DNA from: a virus
IMG/VR virus record: IMGVR_UViG_3300036827_000193
Coordinates: 1 to 64,000 of that record
Reading direction: 5' to 3' (one strand)
Length of the DNA stretch: 64,000 nucleotides
The notes below the pieces were generated by a model. That model ran no database searches. It worked only from the letters and a program-made list of their open reading frames with translations, and was not told the origin of the DNA. Below, one piece after another: positions 11,330 through 43,710 of the stretch; within the stretch, counting starts at the first letter, position 1, and every line of letters begins with the position of its first letter. Both the position numbers and the translations under genes were made by a program.

Positions 11330-11353
11330 CCAAATCACGCGAGGTTGACGGCC

Positions 11354-13267
11354 ATGCATCCCATTCCAAATAACGCGCTCGATGACCGGCTCGGCTTCCT
11401 CGGAACATCCGGCTCCGGCAAGACCTACAATGCCGGCGGTGCGGTCGAGCGGCTGCTCGAACGCCGCGCCCGCGTCGTCATCATCGATCCGCTCGGCGTA
11501 TGGTGGGGCCTGCGCCTCACCGCCGATGGCAAGCACCCATCGCCCTACAATGTCGTGATCTTCGGCGGCCCGCGCGGCGATCTGCCGTTGACCGAGCACG
11601 CCGGCGCGCTGATCGGCGAGACCGCGGCGATCATCGCGGAAAGCTGCATCATCGACTTGAGCGAGATGCGCGGCCACTCGGCCGAGCGCCGCTTCATGAC
11701 GGCGTTCCTGGAAACCATCTACCGCAAGGCCGCCGGCGAGCCGTTCCACCTGATCGTCGACGAGGCCGACCTGTTCGCGCCGCAGAAGCCGCAAGGCGGA
11801 CAGGAGGTCCTGCTCGGCCACATGGAAAACATCGTGCGCCGCGGGCGCGTGCTGGGCTTCATCCCGTGGCTGATCTCGCAGCGCCCGGCGGTGCTGAACA
11901 AGAACGTGCTCTCGCAGGTCGATGGCCTGATCGCGTTCAAACTCACCTCGACGCAGGACCGCGATGCGCTCGACGCCTGGATCGAAGGCCAGGCCGACAA
12001 GGCCAAGGGCAAGGAGATCAAGGACTCGCTGCCTGTGATGTCGGTCGGGCAAGGCATCGTCTGGCTGCCCGGCCACGGCATCCTCAAGACGGTGCAGTTC
12101 CCGCCGAAGGTCACATTCGACAGCTCGCGCACGCCCAAGCGCGGCGAGAAGCAAAAGCGCGCCAAGACCCTCAAGCCGCTCGATGTCGGTGTGCTCAAGG
12201 GGCGGCTGGCGAGCGTCGAAGCCGAAGCCAAGGCCAACGACCCGAAGGCGCTGCGCTCGGAAGTGGCGGCGCTCAAGGCCGAGAAGGTGAAGCTCGAAAA
12301 GCAGGTCACCACGGCGAGCGAGGCAAAAAAACCGCCCGACAAGGACGCGCTCAAGAAGATCGAGCAGCGCGCCATCGAACAGGCGAAAAAACACTTCGCC
12401 CCCCTACTCACTGCTTTGGAGGCGGCCATGAAGTTCATCGTCGAGATCAATGCCAAGGGTTTCTTCAAGGCTGGTGGTGACGCCGTGGACAAGGACGCCG
12501 TCGAAAAGGCGATCAAGGAGGCCGCGCAGCAGGTCACCAGGCTTGTGGAAGGTCATCTGTCGCGACACGACAAGCGCCTAGATGCGCTTCGTGTCGAGGC
12601 GGAACGACTTGCGGCGCGCATCAAGTCCGCGATCGAGAAATCCGGGGAGGATGTCAACATAGCGGTGAACGTCACCCACAATGAGCCGTTCACTGTTCAA
12701 CCGGGAAAATCTTCGGCGGCCGTTGTCCCCCGGCCGGCAGTCGCAAGACCGTCTGCCGCGGCGAGCGGGGATGGCACGTATTCCCGTCCGCAGATGAAGG
12801 TCTTGCGGGCGCTCGCGATGTGGAAGGCAATCGGCCATGACAGGCCTTCGCGGGAAATGGTGGCGGCAGCCGCCGGCTATAGTCCTTCGTCGGGCGGCTT
12901 CAATAATCTTCTCGGCGGTCTCGGCCCCAAGGCCCTCGGCGTCATCGGAATTCCCGCGGCGGGCAATGTATCGCTCGAAATCGACGGCATCGACGTGCCA
13001 ACAATCGACGAAGGCCGCGACATGCTGCTCGATGTCCTGAGCCGGCCGCAACGCAGGCTCGTCGCCGCGCTCAACGGCGCGGGCGCGATCACGCGTGACC
13101 AGCTTGGCGAGGCCACTGGCTATTCGGCCTCAAGCGGCGGCTTCAACAATCTCATCGGCTCGCTCAACACGCTCGGCATCACCTACGTGCCGCAGCAGAG
13201 CCATGTCTCGCTATCCGATTGGGCGCAGGAATTGCTTTCGGGCTATACGATGGATGTCGCAGCATAG
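11354..13267 (+). CDS. HerA/FtsK-like (DUF87-type) ATPase with coiled coil and tandem C-terminal wHTH-like repeats
   Basis: Walker A GTSGSGKT, Walker B LIVDEAD, RRGR, SQRP; two copies of GYS.SSGGFNNL.G.L. Confidence 0.85.
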   Translation: MHPIPNNALDDRLGFLGTSGSGKTYNAGGAVERLLERRARVVIIDPLGVWWGLRLTADGKHPSPYNVVIFGGPRGDLPLTEHAGALIGETAAIIAESCIIDLSEMRGHSAERRFMTAFLETIYRKAAGEPFHLIVDEADLFAPQKPQGGQEVLLGHMENIVRRGRVLGFIPWLISQRPAVLNKNVLSQVDGLIAFKLTSTQDRDALDAWIEGQADKAKGKEIKDSLPVMSVGQGIVWLPGHGILKTVQFPPKVTFDSSRTPKRGEKQKRAKTLKPLDVGVLKGRLASVEAEAKANDPKALRSEVAALKAEKVKLEKQVTTASEAKKPPDKDALKKIEQRAIEQAKKHFAPLLTALEAAMKFIVEINAKGFFKAGGDAVDKDAVEKAIKEAAQQVTRLVEGHLSRHDKRLDALRVEAERLAARIKSAIEKSGEDVNIAVNVTHNEPFTVQPGKSSAAVVPRPAVARPSAAASGDGTYSRPQMKVLRALAMWKAIGHDRPSREMVAAAAGYSPSSGGFNNLLGGLGPKALGVIGIPAAGNVSLEIDGIDVPTIDEGRDMLLDVLSRPQRRLVAALNGAGAITRDQLGEATGYSASSGGFNNLIGSLNTLGITYVPQQSHVSLSDWAQELLSGYTMDVAA

Positions 13268-15855: not shown

Positions 15856-16482
15856 GTGTCGAAAATAATTGATCGTTCGGGGCATCGGTTTGGTGACCTC
15901 GTTGCTATTCGAGTTGTTGGACGCAACGCCACGGGCGGAGCCGTTTGGCTTTGTAAGTGCGACTGCGGTCGAGAGACAAAAGTTGTGGGCCACCGCCTCG
16001 GCATGACGAAATCGTGCGGTCACCGACAAGCTGCGGCCCTTGATAAGGGGCGACGGGAGATCAGGCACGGGCATGCGCGAAAGGGGGCGCAGTCGGCTGA
16101 ATTTCTCGCTTGGCGGTCAATGCGGGCGAGGTGTCTTCTGCCAACGGCCGCTAATTACAATCGCTACGGAGCACGGGGCATCACTGTTTGCGAGCGGTGG
16201 ATGGTCTTCGAAAACTTTCTGTCGGATATGGGGAACAAGCCATCACCAAAACACTCGCTTGATCGATTCCCTAACAACGACGGCAACTACGAGCCGGGCA
16301 ACTGCCGATGGGCAACCCCAGCGGAGCAAACCAGGAACAGGCGCAGTAACCGCCGTGTGTTGGTCCGCGGTGAGGAGATGATCCTCATTGATGCGATCAA
16401 TCGATTTTGCCCTGATCGCAAGAAAACCGTGCAGTCCAGGCTGCACGCTGGTTGGGATATCGAGCGGGCGCTATTTACTTGA
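15856..16482 (+). CDS. Free-standing HNH-like homing endonuclease
   Basis: WLCKCDCG, KSCG, YGARGITVCERW, SLDR..NNDGNYEPGNCRWAT..EQ..N; lower GC; antisense to neighbours. Confidence 0.85.
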   Translation: MSKIIDRSGHRFGDLVAIRVVGRNATGGAVWLCKCDCGRETKVVGHRLGMTKSCGHRQAAALDKGRREIRHGHARKGAQSAEFLAWRSMRARCLLPTAANYNRYGARGITVCERWMVFENFLSDMGNKPSPKHSLDRFPNNDGNYEPGNCRWATPAEQTRNRRSNRRVLVRGEEMILIDAINRFCPDRKKTVQSRLHAGWDIERALFT

Positions 16483-20087: not shown

Positions 20088-23000
20088 TCACATCGCGCCG
20101 GCGGGAAGAGCACCGGCCGGAATTGCCGGCAGATGGACCTGCCGGTTGACCTCATTCTTCACCGTCTGGTGGGCTTTTGGCCAATAACGGTTGCGCTCGT
20201 CCTTGCTGGCCTGGAGCAGGATTGCCTTCTGGTCCTCGTTCGGCAGCCGCGAGAACAGATAGATGTCGGTCGGAACGACGCCGACGTTTTGCATGTAGCC
20301 CGGCTTGAGGCCCAGCGCCTTGCCGCGCTGGTAGGCGTCCTGCAGGGCCTTGCTGTCGTGGTCGCGCTTGGCGATGAGGATGGCGCTGCGCACCGCCATC
20401 TTTTCTTCGGTGCCCTGGGCCTGCTCTTCCGGGCGGCTCGTCGGTGCGACATGCTCGCGGTACAGATAGCTGATGCGGTTCTGGATCGGCGACTTCTCGA
20501 CATAGGCCGGTGCCGGGCCGAAGCCCAGCACGCTCATGCCGACGCCCTTGGCCTTGAGCGCATCGAGATATTGTTCCGGGTGCCGGATTGCTTCGGCGGC
20601 GGACGGGAATGGCTTGCCGGACAACTCGGCCGCATGCTTGGCGCCCGACACCGACATCGGGTTGGTCTGGTCGCCGAAGAAGTGCTTCACGCCCTGCCAG
20701 ACCTGCTGGTAGATCGGCGCGTTCTCGTCCCAGATGTTGTAGCCGTAATAATCGCGGTTGGTGAGGAGCTCGTGGAACGGCTCGAACATGAGCTTGTTCC
20801 ACAGCATCTCGCCGGCGCCCGAGAGCCAGTTGCCGCCGCGCTCCTGCACGTGCTTGAGCAGCATCGGGACTTCGCGAAGGTAGAACATGGTCGTGTAGCG
20901 GCGCGGCGAGCCATCCGGGTTTTCCCCGCCGGCTCTCGGAAACACATAATCGATACCCTCCGGCTGCTTGCCGGTGAAAAGGTTTGTCATTATCCCGGCA
21001 ATGAGGGCGGCGGTGCCGACATAGGCCAGCACGAACGGGATCTTGTTGGTCGCATCACGCGTGACGGCGCGCCCGGCGCTCGGCTTGAAGGGCGGCAGAA
21101 GCCCCGCCGTTCGCGTGCCTGCTTCCAGCGTCGCGCCACCAAACTCGCGCACGAAGCCCAGGTTCCAGCCGAGCGAGAGGAACGAGCCGATCGCCGCGTC
21201 CTTCGTGGTCCGGTTCCAGAACAGCGTGCCGTAGCTCATCTCGCCATAGCGGTTGTCGATCGACTTTGCGATTGCGCGCAGCGCGATGCGCCGATTGGTG
21301 TCGTCGGCCAAAAGTCCCGGGCGGCGCTTGAGCAGCGATGCCGCCTGATCGAGATAGGCCGCGGCCTTGAGCGCGGGGATCCATTTTTCGAACAGCGGGG
21401 CCTGCAGCACCTCGATCGGCCGGCGCATCGCCGCGGACACCGCCTTGCGCCAGTCCGAAGCGCCGGCCTCGCCACGCAGCACCTTGCGCCACGCGACCGC
21501 CAATTGACGCCTGGCGGCAATCTTCAATTGCTCGGACAGTTGCGGCACAAATCCGCCGTCCGTCATCAGCGCGACGACCGCCTTGTCCTGTGGCGTTTGC
21601 TGCGAGGGCCGCTTTGCCCAAGCCGCGCGGGCCTTGGCGCCCTTGCGGTAGTGGATCATGCCGAGCGTCGGGATCGTGCCGACGCCCTCTGCGGCAGCCT
21701 TGAGCGCCGCCGGCAGGTCGTGGCCCTTGGCGAGATCGTCCCATGCGCGCGCGAGCGAGTTTGCCTGGTCGATGTGCAGCACGTGCAGCGGGTGGAACGC
21801 CGAGAGCGCGAGCTTGATCGGCACCCAGGCATTCTTCAACGCCATCCATCCGCGGAACATCGAGCCGCCGACATGCTCGGCCTGCCAAAGCCCCTTGGCT
21901 TCGACGCCGTTCTGCCACAACTTCTGCACGTCGGGCACGATCACCCATTGCTGGCGATCGGGCGCATTGATGGCGCGCCAGCCGCGGCGCACCAATTGCT
22001 CGCCGCCCTGCTTGCCCTCCCAGGCAAGTCCCATGTCCTTGAGCTGGTAGAGCAGCTCCATGCGCTGGCGCATGTCGACGCCCGACAGCAGGCGGTGCAC
22101 CACAATATCGACGGGGTTCGTGAAGCGAAGCTTGAGGCCCGCAGCCAGGCCTTCGGAAATGTAATCGTAGGTCCGCTTCTTCTGGAACCAGGTCGGCCCG
22201 ACCTGGGCGCTGCGCGTCTCCGAAAAAGCGCGCCACTCGTCGGGCTGTTCCCAGATGTGCGGGAAATAGTCGTCCACGAATGCTGCGCGCGAACCGTAGC
22301 GCTGCTCCTCGGCCCAGTTGGCATCGAGGATGCGCCGGTAGCGCCGCGCCATGTCGGCTTGCGTTGCGTCGGCCGGCGTATTGTTGCTCTCGACATCATC
22401 GAGAAAGCGGATGCGCTCGGCGTCGCCGCGCTTGTTCCAGTAATTCCACTGGCTCTCGCTTTGGCGGACGACGGCGTCTTTTTCCTGCGCCTGGCGCGCC
22501 TTGTAGCGGGCAAACAGCGGATCGGCCTCGAGCGCGCGGTCGCTGACAAGTTCGGGCTGGAATGCGGAGGTCCAGAAGTCCTTGAACACCTTGATGGTGC
22601 GGATCGGGTCGCCCATCGCGCCGAGTGTGTAGTGGCGGCCCTCTTCGGCAAGTCCTGTGCCGGCAAGTTCTGTGCCGGCAAGTTCTGCGTCGCCAAGCCC
22701 TACGCCGTGCGCGGCTCGCGCCGCTTGCGCTCGATCATCTGCTCCGCCGACGCGATCATGTCCTGGCGCAGCAACGTGTCCTGCGGCAACTTCCGCAGTT
22801 CGTGCAAATGATGCTCCCAGGTCGCCAGCGTGTCGAAGGCTCCCGGCGGATCGATCATCTGGAAGTTCGTCTGGGCCATGAACAGTCCCTCTCGCGGCAT
22901 GGGCCGCCAATTCAATGTAGGCGCCGAGCCCAAGCTTCTCAATATCGTCGCCGAACGTGCTGTTCGAGCGGTAATCGATGATGCCGGCGCGGTGCAGCGC

Positions 23001-26000
23001 TACCGCGACGGCGTGCGGCAGCAGCGCGTTGGCGGTATCGCGATCGATTCGCCCCGACAACAACGCCGTGTTGATGATGTCGTAGAGCTTGTTCTGGACC
23101 GCCTCGTGGGCGGCGTAGAGGTATTTCGCCGCCGTAACCGGATCGAAGCGGCGCAGCGCTGCGCGTGCTGACGGTGTCAGTTCGGCGCGCGCGACATGGC
23201 CGCCATGGCCGTGCGCCCAGACCGCATGCAGGCCGGGCAGTCCGAGAAACCCGATATCGGGGCCGCTCAAGGTGCCATCGCGCGGGTGATTGTGGTGGAT
23301 GACGATCGCGTTACGCGGATCGCTCGCGATCGCGAAGAGCTTGAGGTCTTGACCGGTGTTGCCAGGACCGCCGCGGGTGTGCGCCACGACCTTGCCGTTC
23401 TGGTCGACCGCGACAAGATGTTCCAAGCCGGTAGCGATGCCCTGCCTGAGGACGTGGCGCTGTGCCCAGTCGCCGGCGAGCATGTGCTGGGGGATGGCGA
23501 TCGGGCCGAGATCGTGCGCCGTGACCTTTGCGGGCTTGGTCTCGCCGGGCTGGAACAGGGCGAAGCCCTGCCCGGTTGCGGCCTGGCGCAGCGCTGGGGC
23601 GATGTCCAGGGTGTGGACGGTGTGCCCCGGATATTTGCTTTTATCCTGCTCCAGAACCAACCCGCGACTTAGATCATTTTGGAAATCGGCCGGTACTGTT
23701 GGCAATTTCCCTTGCCCGACTTTGCCGCCGTACTTCTTGACCAGCTTGTTCGCGGTCTTGGGCAGGATGTCGTCGTAGAAGCCGCGCATGCCTTCGCCGC
23801 CGACCTTGAGGTCGAGGCCCGAGAGCGTCCTTCGGCCTTTGTCGGTGCCATAAAATCCCGAAGGCTTGCCCTCGCCGGCAGCGATGCGCGCCGCAACGTC
23901 CTTGCCGACGTGGTCGGGCAAGTCCTTTTCCGGAACGCCTTCTGCAATGCGGGTGTTGTCACTACGGCCCTTGAGACGAGCATCGATCGTGTAGTGTCCG
24001 TCCGCGCCCTTGATGTAGTGCAGGTCGTCGATCTGCTTGCTCAGGTCGTAGCGATCCGCCTGCACATCTCCCGGCGTCCATGCAATCTTGTCGTAGCCGT
24101 GCTCTGCGGCGTAGCGGATGATCCGCTTCAGCGAGAGTTCGGGCCATGTGGTTTTGAACGGGGCGTCGGGGACGCGGGTTCCTTGTTCGTAGTCCCCATG
24201 GATTTTTGCGGAGCGCTGATAATTGTCGACAGCCTCTGCCCGCGCCACGTCTACCGTGTCGCCCCAGCCGGGCCGCTCCGAGCCGTCCGGCAATGCGAAC
24301 CAGTGCTTGCCATGATCGCCGTCGGTGCGCACAAACTTGAAATCGCTGTCCGTAAACAGTTTTTGCGGCGGCTGCTTGTAGCCCTTTTTCTTCCCCGCCT
24401 GGTGCCAGTCGCTCTGCACTTCCTCGATGAACAGCGTTTTCTTGCCGTCGATGGTGCGGTCGTTGAAACGGATGTGGGCGAGGACGTTGGGCTCGTCGAA
24501 GTGGGGGGAACGGAAATCTTGATTGGCGGAAGGGGGGCGGTATTCGCGGTCAAACTGCGCGTACCTCTCACGCTCAGCGGGGGACATGGCAGCCAGCGTA
24601 TCATCAGTGCCGGTCGTGCCGTATTTACGGCGCATCTCCATCTCGAAGTCATGCCACGCATCGACTTGCGCGTTGCGCGACGCTTCTTCACCCGGCAACT
24701 TCTCCGGCAGCGTCAGCAGCAGCTCGCGGTAGTTCTCGCCGCCCGGCAGTGTGTACTGCCTGTATTGCGTACCGCCGATGTCGCCACCGATTTCTCGCGC
24801 AAGATCGGCAACCGCGCCCTCAAAGGACTCGTGATCGCCAAGCATGGTGCCGCGGACAAACGCGGCGTATCCGGTCAGCTCTCCGTTCTTGTCGTGATAA
24901 ACATCGATGCCCGTCCCCGTCGACCGGCCAGGCAAGGTCAGTTGCGTGGTCGTCCCGCCTTCATCGTTTTCGACTGGCTCGCCTTGTGTCCAGTCCTCGA
25001 TGTCTGACGGCGGTTGCGCGTCGCTTTTCTCCACTTCGCGCACTTCGACCTGATGCGCGCGGACGTAATCGTGCACTTCGGCTTTCGTCACCGCGCCCTT
25101 GTGCTCGCGTAGCCAGTGCTCAAGGCCGAGCCATTCGATCTCCTCGGGCTTGACGCCCGGCGCATTCCTGATGGTGCCGAGCCAATGGTTCGGCGCCGCC
25201 TTGTCCTGCTTGACCGCGGCGACGGCGCGCTCCACTGCGGAGTAGAAGGCTGGCGCATGGCCGAAGGCGTCTTCGCTCTCGGCCAAGGCAAAGCCGTGTC
25301 CCGCCGGTCGCGCCTCTATCGTCTCGAACAAGTGGTCATAGGCCGCTCGGATGCCTTGGTCCCGCATCTCGTCGGCGGTTGGATAAGCACCACCGGCCGT
25401 GTCGATGTTGGCAAGGTAGTCGTTGGCTGCGCCTTTGTCGGCAAGCCGATCGACAATATATCGTTCAAATGAACGGGCGGCCTTCTCGATGGTCGTGTTC
25501 CAGTACGGCTTGGCACGAACCTTGTCGAATTTCGCCGCGCGATCCGCAAAGCCGCCTTTTTGCAGACTGGCCTCGACATTCTTCCACGCTTGATAGACCT
25601 CGTGACGAACCGGGCCACCGTCGCGGCGGCGCTCGCTGATGTATCCGCTGGCCTGATCCTGCCGCGCGAAGTAGTTATCGAGCGCGTGCAGCCATTCGTG
25701 CGCGAGGGAGCCAGGGCCGCCGCCCTTTGTCAGATTGATGACGACTTGGCCCGGCTCGTAGTGGGCCGATGCCGCATCGCGTCCGCCATGGCCGCGAGCG
25801 CCGAAGGCAAGCCCGAGCTCGCCGTTCAACGACAATGCCTGGGGCGGAACGCCGACGACATCGGCAAGGTCCATCAGCGCGTCAAAGGCGCGGTTAAGGT
25901 CGGCTTGTCGGCGTTGCCCTTCGACATAATTGCCGAACTGAACCCCGCGGAAGCCGAACGCGCCTGAGAACATTTCCGGGGTGACGTCGCCCTCGCGCAA

Positions 26001-29000
26001 GGCCTCGCCGCTGCGCGGTCGGTTTTCCGTGCCGCGCATGTTCGGACCCTTGCGCAGTGCGTCGATGGCCGCCTGCAGGTCGTCCCGGTTCTCTTGCAGA
26101 TATTCTCGCGCAGCCTGCGGTGTTTCAAAGCCGGCCTTCAGCCTTATGACCGTGCTGCGTACCTTAAAACCGAGGAATGCGCCCTTGGTCTCTCGATCGC
26201 GATAAATGCCGACATCGGTATATTTGGACCGCTCCCCGGCCCCCTCGGTGGGCTTTTCTGCCAGGTCGTGAGCGATGATCTTTTTCGCCAGCGCAACCGC
26301 GTCCTCTGGATTGTCGCGATAGGTATACGGGTTGGCGGGGTCGTTACTAAATGGATCGCGCGCGCTGCGACGGTCTGGTGATTCCAAAAACCAGAACGAC
26401 TTGGATGGCGAATATCGCTGTCCGTTGAGTATCGAATAGTGACCGGAGTTGACCCGGTAACGCGCGGCCCTTGGCAGATCGGCCGGCGCAATGTCCTCGA
26501 TCGCTTTCGCCGTCAGCGGCAGAGTTTGCAGTGCGTAGTTTCCACGCGCTGCCTGCTCAAGCTTGGCGACATCGATCTCGCCGTCCAGGAGCTGGCGAGC
26601 GAAGGTGCGCAGCGTCTCCACCTGTTCAGCCCACCGTTTCGCCTTCCCGGCGACCCGCGGCCGGTTCGGGATCATGTCGCGCATGATGGCGATGTGCGAA
26701 AGCACGCGCGCGTCGACACCGGCGGCGGCCAGCTTTTCGTAGTCTGGCTGCGGAAACGATTTTGACAGCGGCACCGCTGCGACATCGAACTTCTCGCGCA
26801 GCGAATCGCGAAAGCCCGCAAATGTTTCCTTGCGTGCGCCGCCGATCTTCTCGCCGAAATCCTCGACCTTGGCGACCTTCTCAGGGGCCGATGTTCTTGT
26901 TTCCGATTTGGCGCCGGGCGCGGAATCAGAAGGCCCGGCTGCCCGGGCCTGTGCTGCTTCCGTGTCTGCTGGTTTGTCCGCGGGCTCGGGCGGTTGCGAT
27001 GTCAAAACGGGTGGCAGCGCCTTGGCGGGCTTTCGCGCCAGGTCGACAAGATCGGTTTGTTTGCTCTCATCGCCGAACAGCCCTTCATCCGCCGGCTTCT
27101 GTACTGCCTTCGGCTTCAGGCTTCGGTCGGCGGCTCGCTGGGCGCGCTCGGCGTCTGAGATTTGCTCGGCACCAGGGAGGACGTGCTGCTGTCCTGCGGC
27201 TGTTCGCTCTGTGACAGGTTGAGTTCGTTCACCTGATCGCTTTCCGCCTTGGGCGCGTACTTCTCCGCGTCCCGGTCCTGCGCTCGCGCCAGCGCCAGAT
27301 GCAACCCCGCCAGCTTGTGCGCGCTGTGCCGCTTCTTCAACGGCAGGTTCGGTGCGCTCTGGCGCAGGCTTTTCGCCATGCCTCGGTGGGTGTCGCTCGT
27401 CAAGCGCATTGAACACTTCCTCTCCGGCAAGGATACCCTCGACTTTGTCCCGGTGCAATTCATCCGCGATCATGTCCTCATCGCGGGCATATTGCATGAT
27501 GACCGATTCGAGGGCGTCCAGCGGGTCCTCGCCGCGGTCGAGCATCCGCTCCATAGCGTCAAACCGCAGCGCCTCTGGCACACTATCGAGTGGGATTTTC
27601 TGTTCTTTCAGCGCGGCATCGAAGATCGGGCGCTGGGTTTCGATCTCTTGCTTGCGCCGTGCGTTGTCCTGCCGGACGCTGGTGCCTTGGGCGCGAAGTT
27701 TTTCTTCCGTGGTCTTGTAGGTCGGCCAAGGCGACCCGCGTCCCTCGTCGCGCATCCTTTGTGCGCGGGCGCGATAGGCCTCCTGATTCGCGATCATGCC
27801 GCCAAATGGCTTGCCGCCGCTTACGGCATCTTTGGCAGCCCGGGCAGGCTTGTGTTCAACAGCGGCTTCGGCGCCGCCGCCAGTCCGCCCGTCATCGGCT
27901 TCGGCAGTGCGTTCCCCGCCGGCGGTGTCACCCCCAGCGCCGGCCCCTGTCGCGGGATGACCGGTTGCGGCGGCTTGAGGCTCGCGCCCGGTGCCTTCAC
28001 CGCGAGCGGGCTCTTGGGGCCGAGCAGGTTCTTCAGGCCGTGCAGCTTCAACGCCGCCTTGATCGACAGCTTGCGCGCCCGCGGCAGTCGCCCGATCAGT
28101 TGTGGCGCCTGATGCCGCAGCGCCCAGCCCGCGTTCAGACCCGTCGCGGGCTTCCAGTAGCTCGGTTGTTGCTTCATCGCCGATGTCCTTCGCGATCTCG
28201 TCGCGGCTCATGTGACCGTCTTCGACCAGCGAGCGCACCACGGCCGTGGTGAAGGCATCATCCGGTGGCGCGCCTTCGTTGGCGTGGATCTCGGCGGCGC
28301 GAACTATATCGGCTGGCCGTACGGTGTCCGGGTCGACGCCGGCGGCGCGCAGCGTGTCCTCGATGGCCTGGTGGTGCTCGGGGCCCGCTTCGGGGGCGGC
28401 TCCAGCCCGTTCGCCGGAAATTGGAGTAGTCTTGGCGGTGGGTTCCGGCTCCGCCCTTACATTATTAGTAGGCGAGCCATGCGCGGTTCCCGCTTCGGTC
28501 CCGGCCGCTTGCATGGCGGGTGCGGTTTCCGGCGGGGTTTCCGGCGGGTTTTCCGCCGCCATCGCCTCGGAGGCCGCAGCCTTGGTGTTGCCGGTCTTGA
28601 GCCAGTCCTTGAACTCGCCGACCGGCATCGCCCGCATGCCGCCGATGTGCTGGGGCTTCTTCGAGCTGGTGCCGAGATAGGCCTGGATGGCTTCGGAGGG
28701 GCCATCGAACCCGATCATCGCCTTGTGCTGGCGGAACGCGCCGGTCGCCTCGTCCTTCTCGTCGAGCACATAGACGGTCGGACGCTGCGGGTTTGGTCCC
28801 ATGAAGACGTCGACGTGCATGCCGTCGGCGCCTTCGGTGCCTTTTACATAGCCATAAGGTACCGAGTGGGTGGTCTGCCACGCCTCACCGGTTTCCGGAT
28901 TGGTACCGCGGCGCACGCCGCCGGCCGGCGCCTCGATCGTGATGTCGAGACCGTTCCAGCGCATGTGGCCGCGTTGGACATTGTTGGCTTCACCTTGCTC

Positions 29001-30926
29001 CGGTGAGTGATCCTGGTCGGCGACGGATGCGGCGCGCGCGACGTCATCGGCGGTCTTGACCTCGACCGGCGCCTCGCGCGTGCCTTCCTGCGGCGCTTCG
29101 GCGCCGGCATGCACGCCGTTCTTCAACGCCTCATCGACCGCGTCGGCCTTCTCATCCGGCTTCATGCCGGCGACGTCGTCCTTGGAGTAGCCGTAGCGGC
29201 GCAGCACCTCGTCATCGTCGGCGCGCTGTGAGCCGTAGCCGAACTTGGTGTTGACGTAATCCTTGAGGTCGTCGTCGTTCCACGAGCGGATCGTGTCGCG
29301 ATCGAATTCCTTGTAGTAGGCCGCGGCCTCCTCGAGCTTGAAGCGCGCGCGCGCGCCCATCTTGGTCTCGAACGGTTGCGGTTTTTCGCCCGGCTGCTGT
29401 TGCTGCGCGCCGGATCCCGGCGCTGATCCCGAACCGCCGCCGGTTTGCTGCTGTTGGTCACCGCCCGCCTGATGGTCCCACTCCCCATTCATCGGGTTGT
29501 AGTACCAGCGCCCCCCGGCGGCATCGTCGCGATACCACGTGCCATTGAAGCCGCGGCCGCTGGTGCCCCATTGGTAATCGGGATCGTAGGGATCATCGCG
29601 GCGTGGCGACCCGGTCGGGCGCGCGCCCGCGCCGGCAGCACCGGCGCCGCCGGGCGATTCACCCGGGCGAGGACCGCCGCCCGAACCCGCTGCCGCGCCA
29701 GGCGCTTCGCTTCCCGGCAGTGCGCCCGACACCGCGGCTGCCGGCTGATCCGCTGTGGCGGCCGGCTCGGCGGCATTGCGATTGCCGAATGTCGAAAGCC
29801 CGTGCGTGCCGCCACCGACCGCGAGACCGGTGATGTAGCTCGCCAGCATGCGCTTGAAGTCGGGCGTGTAGGCCGCGTTCTTGTCGTAGTAGGCCGCGGC
29901 GATCTTCTGGTTGAGGTAGTCCTGCGCCTCGCCGATGCCGGTAAAGACGACACCGTCACGCAGCGCGTGTTCGAGGGTTGCCGCTGCCCAGCCGGCGAGG
30001 CCAGGTGCAACCTGCTTGACCGGCGCGAGCACGGAGCCGAGCGGGATCATGCCGAGGCCGCCGCCGACAAGCCCGGAGAGCCCGGCCGCCTTCGCGGCAT
30101 CGTCGTCGCTCGCGCCCTTTTGCTTGGCGGCGTCGAAAGTTTCCCCCGCAGACGACAGCCCCATGCCGAGTCCGCCCATGGCGAGACCGGTGAGCGGGCC
30201 GGCTGCGAGACCGCCAGCGACGTACGGCGCTATGCCGCCGATGCCACCCGCCACCTTGCTGGTGAGCGTTTCCTTCTCGGCTGGCGACAGCGGCGCGGCT
30301 GCCTCGCCGAATTGCTTGACCGATCGTCCGGCCCGGTAGAGCGCGTTGTCCTCGATCGGCGTGGCGCCGACGGTTGCGGTGCCGGTGATGTCGCCGCTGT
30401 TGGGGTCGACGGTGTCCTGAATATCGGACGGAGCGGTGTTGCCCGATGCTCCGGTGACGGCACGGCCAAGCCGGTCAAGGCCGACGGCTGCGCCCTGCAT
30501 GATATCGCCGGTCTGCCCGGTGATGCCCTGCACCGCCGATTTTGCCGCGACGCCAGGCAACGACGACCACGGCACATCCTCGGGCTTTGCAGCTTTCGCC
30601 GACTGGCCGCCGACCGTCGCGGTGCCGGTGATCGGCGGCTCGTCGCTTGGTGCTTCGCCGTACTGCGAGAAGTCGATGGCCGGCGCCTTGTCGACTTCAT
30701 CCTGCGTCTTGCCGAACGCGCCGAAATCGGGCTGCGCCTTCTGCGCATCCTGGTGCTGCTGCAGTTGCTGCTGCTGGCGCTTATCGAGTGTCTTGCGGAT
30801 GAGGCGGTTGAGCACCGCCTGCGGGTCGACGGCATTGTTCTGGACAAGCTCGGGCGCGCGCTCGGTGATGAGATCGTTGACGATGCCTTGCGGGTCGACC
30901 GCCCCAAGCGCGTCGGCGAGGCTCAT
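20088..30926 (-). CDS. Giant polyvalent internal-virion/ejection protein (3612 aa)
   Basis: N-terminal Gly/Ala hydrophobic helices; InPase-like domain (YGYVKGT.GADG.HVDVF); DFGEKIGGARK; LPD1-type zincin (FRGVQFGN, SLAHEWLHALD); IEEVQSDWHQ domain; JAB-like E...HNHP..GTLSGPD; last gene of the ejection cluster. Confidence 0.88.
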   Translation of the reverse strand: MSLADALGAVDPQGIVNDLITERAPELVQNNAVDPQAVLNRLIRKTLDKRQQQQLQQHQDAQKAQPDFGAFGKTQDEVDKAPAIDFSQYGEAPSDEPPITGTATVGGQSAKAAKPEDVPWSSLPGVAAKSAVQGITGQTGDIMQGAAVGLDRLGRAVTGASGNTAPSDIQDTVDPNSGDITGTATVGATPIEDNALYRAGRSVKQFGEAAAPLSPAEKETLTSKVAGGIGGIAPYVAGGLAAGPLTGLAMGGLGMGLSSAGETFDAAKQKGASDDDAAKAAGLSGLVGGGLGMIPLGSVLAPVKQVAPGLAGWAAATLEHALRDGVVFTGIGEAQDYLNQKIAAAYYDKNAAYTPDFKRMLASYITGLAVGGGTHGLSTFGNRNAAEPAATADQPAAAVSGALPGSEAPGAAAGSGGGPRPGESPGGAGAAGAGARPTGSPRRDDPYDPDYQWGTSGRGFNGTWYRDDAAGGRWYYNPMNGEWDHQAGGDQQQQTGGGSGSAPGSGAQQQQPGEKPQPFETKMGARARFKLEEAAAYYKEFDRDTIRSWNDDDLKDYVNTKFGYGSQRADDDEVLRRYGYSKDDVAGMKPDEKADAVDEALKNGVHAGAEAPQEGTREAPVEVKTADDVARAASVADQDHSPEQGEANNVQRGHMRWNGLDITIEAPAGGVRRGTNPETGEAWQTTHSVPYGYVKGTEGADGMHVDVFMGPNPQRPTVYVLDEKDEATGAFRQHKAMIGFDGPSEAIQAYLGTSSKKPQHIGGMRAMPVGEFKDWLKTGNTKAAASEAMAAENPPETPPETAPAMQAAGTEAGTAHGSPTNNVRAEPEPTAKTTPISGERAGAAPEAGPEHHQAIEDTLRAAGVDPDTVRPADIVRAAEIHANEGAPPDDAFTTAVVRSLVEDGHMSRDEIAKDIGDEATTELLEARDGSERGLGAAASGATTDRATAAGAQAVDQGGVEAARPEEPARPQEPARGEGTGREPQAAATGHPATGAGAGGDTAGGERTAEADDGRTGGGAEAAVEHKPARAAKDAVSGGKPFGGMIANQEAYRARAQRMRDEGRGSPWPTYKTTEEKLRAQGTSVRQDNARRKQEIETQRPIFDAALKEQKIPLDSVPEALRFDAMERMLDRGEDPLDALESVIMQYARDEDMIADELHRDKVEGILAGEEVFNALDERHPPRHGEKPAPERTEPAVEEAAQRAQAGGVASGAGASAGPGRGEVRAQGGKRSGERTQPVTERTAAGQQHVLPGAEQISDAERAQRAADRSLKPKAVQKPADEGLFGDESKQTDLVDLARKPAKALPPVLTSQPPEPADKPADTEAAQARAAGPSDSAPGAKSETRTSAPEKVAKVEDFGEKIGGARKETFAGFRDSLREKFDVAAVPLSKSFPQPDYEKLAAAGVDARVLSHIAIMRDMIPNRPRVAGKAKRWAEQVETLRTFARQLLDGEIDVAKLEQAARGNYALQTLPLTAKAIEDIAPADLPRAARYRVNSGHYSILNGQRYSPSKSFWFLESPDRRSARDPFSNDPANPYTYRDNPEDAVALAKKIIAHDLAEKPTEGAGERSKYTDVGIYRDRETKGAFLGFKVRSTVIRLKAGFETPQAAREYLQENRDDLQAAIDALRKGPNMRGTENRPRSGEALREGDVTPEMFSGAFGFRGVQFGNYVEGQRRQADLNRAFDALMDLADVVGVPPQALSLNGELGLAFGARGHGGRDAASAHYEPGQVVINLTKGGGPGSLAHEWLHALDNYFARQDQASGYISERRRDGGPVRHEVYQAWKNVEASLQKGGFADRAAKFDKVRAKPYWNTTIEKAARSFERYIVDRLADKGAANDYLANIDTAGGAYPTADEMRDQGIRAAYDHLFETIEARPAGHGFALAESEDAFGHAPAFYSAVERAVAAVKQDKAAPNHWLGTIRNAPGVKPEEIEWLGLEHWLREHKGAVTKAEVHDYVRAHQVEVREVEKSDAQPPSDIEDWTQGEPVENDEGGTTTQLTLPGRSTGTGIDVYHDKNGELTGYAAFVRGTMLGDHESFEGAVADLAREIGGDIGGTQYRQYTLPGGENYRELLLTLPEKLPGEEASRNAQVDAWHDFEMEMRRKYGTTGTDDTLAAMSPAERERYAQFDREYRPPSANQDFRSPHFDEPNVLAHIRFNDRTIDGKKTLFIEEVQSDWHQAGKKKGYKQPPQKLFTDSDFKFVRTDGDHGKHWFALPDGSERPGWGDTVDVARAEAVDNYQRSAKIHGDYEQGTRVPDAPFKTTWPELSLKRIIRYAAEHGYDKIAWTPGDVQADRYDLSKQIDDLHYIKGADGHYTIDARLKGRSDNTRIAEGVPEKDLPDHVGKDVAARIAAGEGKPSGFYGTDKGRRTLSGLDLKVGGEGMRGFYDDILPKTANKLVKKYGGKVGQGKLPTVPADFQNDLSRGLVLEQDKSKYPGHTVHTLDIAPALRQAATGQGFALFQPGETKPAKVTAHDLGPIAIPQHMLAGDWAQRHVLRQGIATGLEHLVAVDQNGKVVAHTRGGPGNTGQDLKLFAIASDPRNAIVIHHNHPRDGTLSGPDIGFLGLPGLHAVWAHGHGGHVARAELTPSARAALRRFDPVTAAKYLYAAHEAVQNKLYDIINTALLSGRIDRDTANALLPHAVAVALHRAGIIDYRSNSTFGDDIEKLGLGAYIELAAHAARGTVHGPDELPDDRSAGSLRHAGDLGASFARTAEVAAGHVAAPGHDRVGGADDRAQAARAAHGVGLGDAELAGTELAGTGLAEEGRHYTLGAMGDPIRTIKVFKDFWTSAFQPELVSDRALEADPLFARYKARQAQEKDAVVRQSESQWNYWNKRGDAERIRFLDDVESNNTPADATQADMARRYRRILDANWAEEQRYGSRAAFVDDYFPHIWEQPDEWRAFSETRSAQVGPTWFQKKRTYDYISEGLAAGLKLRFTNPVDIVVHRLLSGVDMRQRMELLYQLKDMGLAWEGKQGGEQLVRRGWRAINAPDRQQWVIVPDVQKLWQNGVEAKGLWQAEHVGGSMFRGWMALKNAWVPIKLALSAFHPLHVLHIDQANSLARAWDDLAKGHDLPAALKAAAEGVGTIPTLGMIHYRKGAKARAAWAKRPSQQTPQDKAVVALMTDGGFVPQLSEQLKIAARRQLAVAWRKVLRGEAGASDWRKAVSAAMRRPIEVLQAPLFEKWIPALKAAAYLDQAASLLKRRPGLLADDTNRRIALRAIAKSIDNRYGEMSYGTLFWNRTTKDAAIGSFLSLGWNLGFVREFGGATLEAGTRTAGLLPPFKPSAGRAVTRDATNKIPFVLAYVGTAALIAGIMTNLFTGKQPEGIDYVFPRAGGENPDGSPRRYTTMFYLREVPMLLKHVQERGGNWLSGAGEMLWNKLMFEPFHELLTNRDYYGYNIWDENAPIYQQVWQGVKHFFGDQTNPMSVSGAKHAAELSGKPFPSAAEAIRHPEQYLDALKAKGVGMSVLGFGPAPAYVEKSPIQNRISYLYREHVAPTSRPEEQAQGTEEKMAVRSAILIAKRDHDSKALQDAYQRGKALGLKPGYMQNVGVVPTDIYLFSRLPNEDQKAILLQASKDERNRYWPKAHQTVKNEVNRQVHLPAIPAGALPAGAM
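22700..22879 (-). CDS. Nested +1-frame small gene (59 aa) inside the giant gene
   Basis: GAGAGGGA RBS, ATG 22879; GC3 bias shifts to this frame. Confidence 0.6.
   Translation of the reverse strand: MAQTNFQMIDPPGAFDTLATWEHHLHELRKLPQDTLLRQDMIASAEQMIERKRREPRTA
27116..27409 (-). CDS. Nested +1-frame small basic gene inside the giant gene
   Basis: GGAGAGGA RBS, ATG 27409, MRLTSDTHRGMAKSLR; host frame is a low-complexity linker here. Confidence 0.5.
   Translation of the reverse strand: MRLTSDTHRGMAKSLRQSAPNLPLKKRHSAHKLAGLHLALARAQDRDAEKYAPKAESDQVNELNLSQSEQPQDSSTSSLVPSKSQTPSAPSEPPTEA
27821..28177 (-). CDS. Nested +1-frame Lys/Pro-rich gene inside the giant gene
   Basis: AAGGA RBS, ATG 28177; host frame has AT-rich third positions here. 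Confidence 0.4.
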   Translation of the reverse strand: MKQQPSYWKPATGLNAGWALRHQAPQLIGRLPRARKLSIKAALKLHGLKNLLGPKSPLAVKAPGASLKPPQPVIPRQGPALGVTPPAGNALPKPMTGGLAAAPKPLLNTSLPGLPKMP

Positions 30927-39039: not shown

Positions 39040-39588
39040 ATGACCAAGGCTGACACAGCCTACATTAGATTCATTGACGCAGGGCGGCGGTTTAACCGCC
39101 TTACCGCCATCGAATTTGTCGGCTACGAAGCGACGCCGCGCAGAAAGCCGCTCTGGCGTTTTCGGTGTGACTGCGGGAACGAGTGCATCAGCCGCACCGA
39201 GAGCGTCAGAAGCGGGAATACAAAAAGCTGCGGATGTCAAAAGGTCGACAGCACTCGGAGGGTTGGCCATGCCAATTTTGTGCACGGCCAGAGCGACACG
39301 AGGATTTACCGAATCTGGCACGCCATGCTGCATCGCTGCAGCAACCCGAAGAATGAAAAATTTGAATACTATGGCGGTCGCGGAATTTCGGTTTGCCGCG
39401 AATGGCACTCAATCCACGATTTCAGAGATTGGGCGCTGGCCAATGGTTACGCCAAGAACCTCACGATCGACCGGTATCCCGACAAAGACGGAAACTACGA
39501 GCCCCGCAATTGCCGGTGGGTGACGATAGAAGAGCAGCAGACGAACCGCCGCCCGCGCCGCTGGTTGAAACGACCCCCCGTCGCGTGA
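39040..39588 (+). CDS. Free-standing HNH-like homing endonuclease
   Basis: WRFRCDCG, TKSCGC, YGGRGISVC.EW, TIDRYPDKDGNYEPRNCRW; paralog of 15856..16482. Confidence 0.85.
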   Translation: MTKADTAYIRFIDAGRRFNRLTAIEFVGYEATPRRKPLWRFRCDCGNECISRTESVRSGNTKSCGCQKVDSTRRVGHANFVHGQSDTRIYRIWHAMLHRCSNPKNEKFEYYGGRGISVCREWHSIHDFRDWALANGYAKNLTIDRYPDKDGNYEPRNCRWVTIEEQQTNRRPRRWLKRPPVA

Positions 39589-41016: not shown

Positions 41017-43710
41017 TTACGCCGCGCTGTCCCACATCACGACCCGCGAGTTGAGCGAGTCGGTGTGGACCAAACCAAAACCGCCGAGGTAATTGATTGT
41101 GTTCACCCGTCGTCGCTAACGACGGGCCGAGACGACCTTTTTGTAGGTCAACTCTGCTGGCTCTTTCGAACCAGTCCAGACCATATCTTCAGTGACGCAA
41201 GTTGCTTTTTTGCGTTACTGCTGGGGGCTTCGGTGCGCTTGCACCTACGAGCTTTCGCTCTGGTCGTTGAAGCTTCCTCTGCGTGAGAGGCTCGCCTGCT
41301 GATTATCCAATCTCAGAACTTTTCAGGCCGTCACGCCTGCGGTCGCCCGCTACGTTGTGGCGTTCTGAGCTTTAGGAACTTCCAGCAATTCTCCCAGTTT
41401 TTACGCCTAGCATTATTCTCTACCAGGCGATGCCCCGGCTGCGACCGTAGTCGCCCGGGATCTTCGCGCGGACTTCCTCGGGTACGCACACGGCTTCAGT
41501 GACCGTGTCACCGCCGCAGAAGAACGCCCAGGAAGACAGGCCATTCGTCCACGGTTGCGCAACGCCGCTCCACGGATCGTACGACGTGGCATTCGCCGCG
41601 CCGCCCTTGGGAACGAACGTCTGCTCGATGAAGCGGCAGGACTCGTACCTGCCGATTTCGCCGTTGAAGATGTGCGCGAGACCGGTCTCGGTGTACTGGT
41701 GGATGGTCTCGAGCGAATTCTTGAAGTTGCGATACGTGGTCGGATGCGACACCGCCACGTAGTCATCCGCCGTGAACGGCGGAATGTTTCGCTCCTTCAT
41801 GGTGTCGACGATCGCCTTGACGTGCCCGGTACCGAGCGCGACGTTGTTCGTCACGGTTGCGGTGCCGTTGGTGTCGAGGTTGATGGCGGTCGTCGAAGTG
41901 CTGGAAGACGGCTCGGCGCGCAGCAGAGTGTTCTTGAACTGCAAGAACGACTCGATGTCGAAGTATTTGCGCGCGTCGTCCTTCAGCGTTTTGTCGATGA
42001 TCGCGGCGACCTGATGCTTCGCCAGCGCGACCAGCTTGCCGGTGTAGGGAACGCTATTCCCAGCTTCAAAGCAGAATTGTTCTTTGCCGCGGCTCTTTAT
42101 CCGCAGCCTCAACCGCTCGCGCGATTGCTCAGACTATCTCTTGCAGATTACTGTGATCTGCCCGGGCGCTCGTGGTCGGATTATTCTTTCGTCACCGACT
42201 AGTCGTTACGCCTTCCGCGCCCCTGGGGCTCTCGCCTTACATGCGCGACTTGGCTCGGGATTGTCTCTGAGAGAGGTTCCCCGAATTCACCCGGTGTTTC
42301 ACCTTACGCGGCGAGCGCGAAGGTGCGGCCTGTGTTGACCGTAAGCTGGTGTTGCAGCATGACGAACCCGGTCTCCGGGATCGGGGCGCTTTCGTCCAGC
42401 CGGCGGCCTTGCGTGCCGAGGTTGGAATAAACGTCCCAGTTGAACTTGTCGCCGCGGTTGAGGCCTTTCTTGGTGCCATCCTCGGCGTCGCAGAGCTGCC
42501 GCATCTTGGTCAGCGGCTGCACCTGCTGGCGGAGCACGTCCGACAATTCGTCGGAGTACATGAATCCGCCCTCAGTGGGGACTGCCTTTTGTTCGCACGA
42601 TCCCGTTTGTGGATCGTTCCTGCATCTTTCAATGCAGAGCAGACTATATCTTGAAATCTTCTGCCGGTATCCCACATACATCCCTAGCGGGGAAACACAT
42701 GCGCATCACCAAATCACAACTCGTCGCCCTCTACGCAAAGAGGACTGACGATCAAATCGGCAAGCTGTTCGGCGTAACCGGCCATTCAGTTGGCGATTGG
42801 CGACGGCATTATGGCATCCAGCGCAAACCAAGAGAGACTTACAACAAGTATACCCTTGATCGCGATTTTTTCGCGAAGATTGACACCGAAGAGAAGGCGT
42901 ACGCGCTCGGTCTTATAGCGTCCGATGGATGGGTGGCCCGATCTGGAAAGCAAGTGAGCCTTGCTCTTCAGGTTCGAGACCGGCACATCCTTTATGATCT
43001 TCGACGCGCCCTGAAGTCGGATGCTCGTGTCTTCGACAAGGCGAGAGGCGGCTTTGCCGGCTCTGGCCCGCGGAAACAGATTACCTTCGACAGCAAGAAG
43101 CTGGTCGCCGATCTGGCGCGCTGGGGTGTCATCCCCGGAAAATCAGTCACCCTCCGCTACCCCCGTATTCCGAAACATCTTGAGTGCCATTTTGCGCGAG
43201 GACTTTTTGACGGGGATGGGCACATTCGCGCCCACCCGAAAAAGCTCTTTTATTTTCTTGGCACTTCCGACCTGATCGACGGACTACGAAAGTCGATCAT
43301 CCGACATACGGGCGCGGCGCTCGCCAAGTACGAGGCCGTGGGCTGTTGGCGGATTTCTGGATACGGTGGCAGCGTCGCGGTGCTGCGGTGGATGTATGAA
43401 GATGCGACGATCTGCCTTCGCAGGAAGCATCGCGTCTTCTTGAGGTACTGGAAGTGATGTCCTGGGCGCTCGTGGGACCGATTATCGTCGGGGTCTCACA
43501 GTCCTAGTCGTTGAACCTTCCGAGCTACAGTTTCCCCTGCTCGGCTTGGCTGCTGATCGGCCAATCCCTGATCTTTTCGCGCATTCACGCTCGCCCTCTC
43601 GGGCCACGTTGTAGCGATCAAGGCTCTAAGGCTGTTCCAGCAATTCACCCAGTGCGCACTCTGAACTCGCATTCAGAGGGGGGCTAAGTTACCCACAATT
43701 GTCCTGCCAT
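41017..43710 (-). CDS. Major capsid protein (N4-gp56-like family), about 330 aa, four exons: complement(join(41017..41093,41422..42071,42338..42584,43692..43710))
   Basis: Joined frame reads MAGQLW/AVPTEGGFMYSDELSD...QHQLTV/FEAGNSVPYTGKL...GEIGRYE..RF...IPGDYGRSRGIAW/YYLGGFGLVH...VVMWDSAA*; AAAGGA RBS; follows the scaffold gene. Confidence 0.88.
41094..41421 (-). mobile_element. Group I intron 3 (328 nt, no ORF; two hairpins between P7 and P3, IA2-like); apparent terminal A
   Basis: P1 CGCCUGGU/GCUAGGCG with U.G; P AAUUGCUGGAA, Q AAUCAGCAG, R UUCAACGACCAG, S GAAGAUAUGGUCU (compensatory GACCA/UGGUC). Confidence 0.9.
42072..42337 (-). mobile_element. Group I intron 2 (266 nt, no ORF, canonical splice sites)
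   Basis: P1 CGGU|C/GGCCG with U.G; P AAUUCGGGGAA, Q AAUCCCGAGC, R GUAACGACUAG, S AAGAGAUAGUCU; ends ...AAUUCUG; removal restores GT|C TTT GAA. Confidence 0.92.
42585..43691 (-). mobile_element. Group I intron 1 (about 1107 nt) with an antisense LAGLIDADG ORF in the P8 loop
   Basis: P2 CUCUGAA/UUCAGAG, P3 CUGGGU/GCCCAG, P AAUUGCUGGAA, Q GAUCAGCAGC, R GUUCAACGACUAG, S AAGAUAUAGUCU, P9 UGCAU..GAAA..AUGCA; boundaries uncertain by 1 nt. Confidence 0.88.
42699..43457 (+). CDS. Double-motif LAGLIDADG homing endonuclease with N-terminal HTH
   Basis: AYALGLIASDG and HFARGLFDGDG; N-terminal DQIGKLFGVTGHSVGDWRRHYGI; GGGGA RBS before ATG 42699. Confidence 0.9.
   Translation: MRITKSQLVALYAKRTDDQIGKLFGVTGHSVGDWRRHYGIQRKPRETYNKYTLDRDFFAKIDTEEKAYALGLIASDGWVARSGKQVSLALQVRDRHILYDLRRALKSDARVFDKARGGFAGSGPRKQITFDSKKLVADLARWGVIPGKSVTLRYPRIPKHLECHFARGLFDGDGHIRAHPKKLFYFLGTSDLIDGLRKSIIRHTGAALAKYEAVGCWRISGYGGSVAVLRWMYEDATICLRRKHRVFLRYWK

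Follow-up and report, generated by a model that had tools for sequence, protein, structure and literature searches.

We analysed a 64,000-nt stretch of DNA (hereafter the window), the first 64 kb of an 81,387-bp IMG/VR record from an uncultured soil phage (IMGVR_UViG_3300036827_000193), and found its major capsid gene on the minus strand in four pieces, separated by three inserts with the features of group I introns (Table 1). Minus-strand translation gave four open pieces, and tblastn searches with intact capsid proteins, from Escherichia phage PTXU04 and a set of Vibrio phages, recovered all four in order and without overlap. The longest piece, exon 3, was 47–50% identical to the PTXU04 and Vibrio phage capsid proteins and up to 91% identical to its closest relatives in IMG/VR. 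We placed the junctions with intron-less IMG/VR relatives. The joined exons formed a 993-nt coding sequence for 330 amino acids with no internal stop, and alignment of this protein with four intron-less relatives, each also of 330 amino acids, contained no gap columns at 87–91% identity. An intron-less relative in soil run X4 was joined exactly at the exon 3/exon 4 junction. The gene is the major capsid gene, encoding an HK97-fold protein of the PTXU04/N4 type, of a podophage. A preliminary description, made from the letters of the window, had proposed four capsid fragments split by group I introns of 1107, 266 and 328 nt. These lengths proved exact, as did the predicted size of the coding sequence and protein and the junction peptides TVFEAGN and IAWYYLGG, and the gap-free alignment with intron-less homologs agrees with that proposal. 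It was silent on the minus strand, on an antisense endonuclease gene and on two non-canonical splice sites, all of which are described below.

Table 1. The interrupted capsid gene and its introns, in window coordinates
Feature	Position	Strand	Description
Capsid exon 1	43710-43692	-	19 nt: Met, five codons and base 1 of codon 7; N-terminal hexapeptide identical in intron-less relatives
Group I intron 1	43691-42585	-	1107 nt, subgroup IA-like; antisense open reading frame (ORF) in P8 loop
LAGLIDADG homing endonuclease gene	42690-43457	+	255 aa; antisense to intron 1 and capsid gene; intron positions 235-1002
Capsid exon 2	42584-42338	-	247 nt; tblastn matches to PTXU04 and Vibrio capsid proteins and to L009 capsid residues 7-89
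Group I intron 2	42337-42072	-	266 nt; without ORF
Capsid exon 3	42071-41422	-	650 nt; PHROG 1357 major head protein, E 3e-8
Group I intron 3	41421-41094	-	328 nt; without ORF; P7.1/P7.2 present; last base A (41094)
Capsid exon 4	41093-41017	-	77 nt, including TAA stop at 41019-41017; tblastn matches to capsid C termini

All three inserts matched the Rfam group I intron model RF00028, for which the gathering score is 50 bits. Intron 3 matched at 41157–41493(-) with 68.1 bits (E 3.8e-15), intron 1 at 42620–43700(-) with 50.7 bits (E 6.2e-10) and intron 2 at 42110–42323(-) with 42.4 bits (E 9e-9, in a search of a 3-kb region), which bears out the proposal that the inserts are group I introns. 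The whole 81-kb record contained no RF00028 match beyond these three. The Rfam alignments place a P3–P9 core in each intron, with a P7 G-C pair beside the bulged base, and the P7 strands ACGAC(C/U)A and U(G/A)GUCU are present in all three introns and in their relatives. Each alignment also contains extra hairpins between the 5′ strand of P7 and the 3′ strand of P3, and by these P7.1/P7.2-type hairpins the three introns are of subgroup IA. The GAACA near the 3′ end that the preliminary description had noticed is common to all three (42594–42590, 42082–42078 and 41104–41100). We considered a pairing of this motif with the conserved GUUC of J6/7 and rejected it, since GUUC is missing from intron 2.

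The ends of the introns are marked by further pairings. Intron 2 has a short P1 (CGGU/GCCG), a P2 hairpin, a P9.0 of CU/AG, a U at position -1 (42338) and a terminal G (42072). Intron 3 has a six-pair P1 (CCUGGU/GCUAGG) that ends in the U.G pair at 41422, a four-pair P10 (AUUA/UAAU) with the first bases of exon 4, and a two-pair P9.0 in which UC, directly 5′ of the last base, pairs with GA of J7/9. Intron 1 has a P2 hairpin, a 768-nt insertion in the P8 loop and a P9.0 pair, AG/CU, that places its terminal G at 42585; the homologous intron 1 of the contig L008 has CA/UG at P9.0, covarying with AG/CU. The P9.0 pairs thus covary, and they immediately precede each inferred last intron base. The proposed P1 pairing of each intron with its own upstream exon is clear for introns 2 and 3. 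In intron 1 the evident pairing, GGGU/GCCC, is shifted by one base relative to the reading frame.

Covariation was assessed for the intron 3 site, using seven homologs from different contigs and an RNAalifold consensus. Helices P1 through P9 were recovered, with compensatory changes in 42 of 68 pairs, which argues that the introns at this site are ribozymes under selection and not chance matches. The P1 U.G pair was kept in all seven homologs, and the P7.1/P7.2 hairpins of this family were likewise backed by compensatory changes.

Two boundary bases depart from the rules for group I introns. The first is at the 5′ splice site of intron 1. By the textbook rule, the 5′ exon ends in the U of the P1 U.G wobble. 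The junction that keeps the frame at intron 1 lies after G 43692, so that 43691, the U of the U.G pair, is the first base of the intron; because P9.0 fixes the terminal G at 42585, the 5′ exon must end at G 43692. The same G at -1 is present in L008, where the intron is 77% identical, the exons are 80–82% identical and the endonuclease gene is intact, so the feature has persisted through substantial divergence. We also worked through other possible junctions of introns 1 and 3 by hand and rejected them: each breaks the frame, deletes a conserved W or needs a terminal C or U.

The second departure is at the 3′ end of intron 3. The last base of group I introns is a near-universal G, and that of intron 3 is A (41094 or 41093) under every frame-preserving junction. 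The P10 pairing, the P9.0 pairing and a fixed distance of 11–12 nt from the last hairpin all agree on one place for the end of this intron. A second, identical contig (X3) stops at 41101, and the A at 41094 rests on the source assembly and on homologs. We collected introns at the same site by junction pattern from viral and metagenome contigs; 13 of 17 distinct introns ended in G and four in A. The A-ending introns are those of the window, L068, L219 and L231, and in all four the final bases are UC-A. The two of them that have a full core are not mutual nearest relatives, the terminal hairpins of the A-ending introns differ through compensated changes, and three of the four contain apparently open HNH frames. 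We found no compensating change in the guanosine-binding pair of the A-ending introns, their P7 being identical to that of G-ending relatives. A-to-I editing of the last base was considered and dropped; its context is unlike that of known bacterial editing sites.

A G-ending intron at the intron 3 site is present in Vibrio phage 1.232.O._10N.261.51.E11 (MG592596; L087 2094–3350), whose homologous capsid gene carries an unannotated 313-nt intron scoring 83 bits with RF00028. This intron, like intron 3, lies after base 1 of the codon that follows the conserved W and has the tail motif GAACACAA. It differs in its terminal G and in being the only intron of its gene, and the capsid gene is closely followed by an HNH gene, free-standing and on the sense strand. 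The GenBank capsid protein of 1.232.O stops at 290 amino acids inside the intron, with the last 25 codons lying downstream; it is truncated because the intron is unannotated.

Both textbook rules would be obeyed by an alternative set of canonical sites, in which the U.G pair lies at the 5′ splice site and the last intron base is the G that just precedes the conserved YGAAC. Such splicing would cut intron 1 after 43691, with 42596 as its last base, and would end intron 3 at 41106. Each of the two junctions is in frame and free of stops in the window and would insert four residues at a conserved motif of the protein. We regard this as very unlikely because the equivalent junction in the homologous intron 1 of L008 is out of frame and the tail of the L051 intron starts with an in-frame stop codon. 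In addition, the P9.0 and P10 pairings favour the junctions placed by homology, the intron-less relatives are all exactly 330 amino acids long with no insertion in the conserved motifs, and the same tail in Vibrio phage 1.232.O ends in G at the homology junction.

The insertion in the P8 loop of intron 1 encodes, on the opposite strand, a LAGLIDADG homing endonuclease. The protein matched Pfam LAGLIDADG_3 (PF14528) with 30.9 bits (cutoff 22.5) and PHROG 4645 over residues 17–251 (E 1e-45), and its translation shows two copies of the LAGLIDADG motif. The L008 contig carries the same intron at the same site with an antisense homolog of the endonuclease (71% amino acid identity), as well as a second capsid intron, in which an HNH gene (3059–3775, minus strand) is antisense. 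A contig from another soil run appears to skip 42653–43503 and would be an ORF-less version of intron 1. The orientation of endonuclease genes varies in the clade: the LAGLIDADG gene and one HNH gene (that of L008) are antisense, and the HNH genes in the intron-3-site introns of L068 (4629–5428), L065 (4644–5446), L219 and L231 lie near the 3′ end in sense orientation. The window also contains two free-standing HNH genes on the plus strand, at 39040–39588 and 15856–16482, which a match to phrog_374 (E ~1e-61) puts in one PHROG family. The gene at 39040–39588 is surrounded by late genes of the minus strand, to which it is antisense, and the capsid gene is 1.4 kb away. These two enzymes could supply homing in trans for the ORF-less introns.

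To survey the clade, we scanned IMG/VR and took the 80 closest relatives. About 70 of these are intron-less at all sites, and others are interrupted at other positions, with several contigs holding two or three capsid introns at other sites. Mapped on an intron-less reference, the insertion points number about ten, at approximately residues 6/7, 35, 53, 82, 89, 96, 175–180, 275, 305 and 309. The capsid gene of this clade is therefore an intron hotspot and a recurrent target. Comparison with metagenomes covered DNA contigs from four soil runs. An intron-less allele was also found in another soil metagenome, and a pattern scan of viral contigs for introns at the intron 1 site returned only the L008 contig. 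Introns of the intron 2 family, defined by terminal hairpin and tail, usually lie after codon 96, behind CGGU. Intron 2 of the window sits 21 nt upstream of this usual site, again behind CGGU, and the usual site here reads GCGU, which fits an ectopic move through the 4-nt guide sequence; the sequence thus suggests that intron 2 may have moved in this way. The P4–P5 core sequence that introns 1 and 3 have in common was matched in over 117 further contigs of IMG/VR, varied in size (L088–L204 among the matches listed), so this intron family is widespread in uncultured phages, well beyond capsid genes.

Among close relatives the introns are patchily distributed, occupy many sites and are associated with homing endonuclease genes, a pattern that points to selfish mobile elements. 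The preliminary description had suggested a timing or metabolic checkpoint, for which we found no support. By that account the introns would tie capsid synthesis to timing or to the level of GTP, and the reasoning in its favour is that group I splicing needs guanosine and that three serial events must all succeed. However, genes without interruption encode the same protein in the closest relatives, and intron number and position vary freely in the clade, which is the signature of mobile elements, so we consider a checkpoint extremely unlikely.

A different explanation for the two odd bases is that the gene is decaying, with intron 3, intron 1 or both mis-spliced in a defective phage or prophage remnant. 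The bases do violate near-universal rules, and relatives do occur as prophages. All exons are nevertheless intact and highly conserved, CheckV rates the record 100% complete, and identical pieces of the sequence are present in two further soil runs from other studies. Decay is also at odds with the pattern among the homologs: the terminal A recurs in distinct introns at its site, with compensated hairpins, apparently open HNH frames and full-core members that are not mutual closest relatives, and the G at -1 is common to L008 across ~20% divergence, where the endonuclease gene is intact. Moreover, the hexacoral mitochondrial ND5-717 group I intron has a natural terminal A and is spliced in vivo (PMC8146996). 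We therefore consider decay unlikely. Because of the spliced sea-anemone intron, a terminal A is rare but not unprecedented, although ND5-717, alike in its last nucleotide, differs in being organellar, obligatory, giant, thought to depend on host factors, non-mobile and unrelated to phage IA introns (PMC8146996). Our literature search found no report of a group I intron in phage with a terminal A or a -1 base other than U, a weak negative given that Greek-letter notation cannot be queried.

Taken together, the sequence makes it very likely that the capsid gene is interrupted by three self-splicing, selfish group I introns whose odd boundary bases are tolerated. In the mechanism that we propose, the gene would be transcribed as one minus-strand pre-mRNA, and each ribozyme would fold, cut its 5′ splice site with guanosine and ligate the exons, so that three self-splicing events would give the 993-nt mRNA and the 330-aa capsid protein. 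The introns would be mobile elements rather than a regulatory device. The endonuclease gene is on the opposite strand and would thus be expressed independently of the capsid mRNA, and its LAGLIDADG product is predicted to cut intron-less capsid alleles of co-infecting relatives and so drive homing. Introns 2 and 3 may have lost their ORFs, or their endonucleases may be supplied in trans. As a speculative side benefit, by analogy, cutting the capsid gene of co-infecting intron-less relatives might harm competitors.

Several observations weigh against this interpretation. A terminal G-to-A change blocks exon ligation in model ribozymes (work on Tetrahymena), and intron 3 ends in A yet has an ordinary G-C guanosine-binding pair in P7. 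The P1 U.G pair of intron 1 is one base inside the 5′ splice site. Intron 2 scored below the Rfam gathering score (42.4 versus 50 bits); members of its family at the neighbouring site scored 59.8 and 63.4 bits with RF00028. No promoter-like site came up when the surroundings of the antisense endonuclease gene were scanned for sigma-70 promoters. The two non-canonical bases, the A that ends intron 3 and the G at -1 of intron 1, appear to be tolerated. For a stronger statement we put the chances at about even: that a mobile phage intron lineage ligates exons with a 3′-terminal A and an ordinary G-C guanosine-binding pair, that a second intron in the same gene uses G-C rather than U.G at its 5′ site, and that both function in the phage gene with the highest expression. 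If splicing is accurate, the terminal A and the -1 G would be natural exceptions to two textbook splice-site rules. Group I introns would then follow their two most conserved splice-site rules less strictly in nature than ribozyme biochemistry implies, or an unknown cofactor would compensate.

Interrupted capsid genes have precedents, and the view of the preliminary description that three introns in a capsid gene are unusual was overstated: LittleE, Tuc2009, Twort orf142 and the multi-intron relatives are all known cases of such interruption or of multiple introns. The major capsid gene of mycobacteriophage LittleE contains an intron with a bottom-strand LAGLIDADG-like frame, and splicing in vivo restores the normal length of the capsid protein (Pope et al. 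2013, PMC3706429); an intron in the capsid gene of Tuc2009 has also been described (PMC3706429). LittleE resembles the window in that its major capsid gene holds what is probably a group I intron, with an antisense LAGLIDADG-like frame, so this arrangement is not new. The likeness noted here is one of arrangement, and LittleE differs in having one intron, a U at -1 and a 3′ G and in being a siphovirus of an actinobacterium. The orf142 gene of Staphylococcus phage Twort is cited in PMC6669764, after Landthaler and Shub (1999, PMC22036), as containing three self-splicing group I introns. On that citation, it is likewise one phage gene with three introns of the phage IA type, although the host gene and the phage are different. 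Its splice sites are reportedly canonical. The intron endonuclease gp210 of PhiPA3 is used in phage competition and, as outlined in PMC11620839, is a group I intron homing endonuclease aimed at an essential gene of co-infecting relatives. In that outline its target is the RNA polymerase gene of a jumbo phage, and competition is demonstrated there, whereas in the window phage it is conjecture.

The window gene is thus a genuine, clearly bounded instance of a phenomenon already known, to which it adds the clade-wide hotspot pattern and the two non-canonical bases. Gene callers break the interrupted capsid gene into pieces, and the capsid protein of Vibrio phage 1.232.O has already been mis-annotated as truncated; capsid-based classification of phages will therefore misjudge such genomes. 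The clade offers a natural series for the spread of group I introns in one essential gene, spanning zero to three introns, about ten sites and endonuclease genes that are sense, antisense or absent. The interrupted capsid system could be rebuilt from synthetic DNA.

We also examined the genome around the capsid gene. The preliminary description had called the phage temperate and alphaproteobacterial. The search of the 81-kb record found no tyrosine integrase, and it did not cover serine recombinases or transposases. Intron-less relatives sit in Bradyrhizobium, Aestuariivirga and Xanthobacteraceae assemblies, some within very large contigs; a metagenome-assembled genome (MAG) of Xanthobacteraceae holds the best match (91%). 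An alphaproteobacterial host and temperate relatives are therefore plausible for the clade. The intron-less capsid homologs of L256, L258 and L267 (Bradyrhizobium sp. sGM-13, BRP22; an Aestuariivirga MAG), 67–71% identical, are located within contigs of 65 kb to 2.9 Mb. Their location suggests that the phage group is present as integrated prophages in Alphaproteobacteria.

Two side observations concern further reading frames. A 125-codon minus-strand frame (42304–42681) is open from the 3′ part of intron 1 into exon 2, and L008 has a similar read-through frame that is unrelated in sequence. It is probably a product of chance in GC-rich DNA, although unspliced RNA could yield an N-terminally altered product through it. 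On the plus strand, a 640-aa ORF (11345–13264) matches the large-terminase profile only in its C-terminal third (profile positions 321–518 of 555), with no group I match at this ORF; the large terminase may be split or fused to another part.

The genes for virion proteins occupy the minus strand from ~20 kb to 56 kb of the window, in a block that encodes the portal, an SU10-type adaptor, tail fibre proteins and a 3612-aa internal protein. The last of these is a single ORF (20088–30926, minus strand) that matches minor head and virion proteins, DarB-like antirestriction proteins and an endolysin segment, and its product is probably an ejected internal virion protein.

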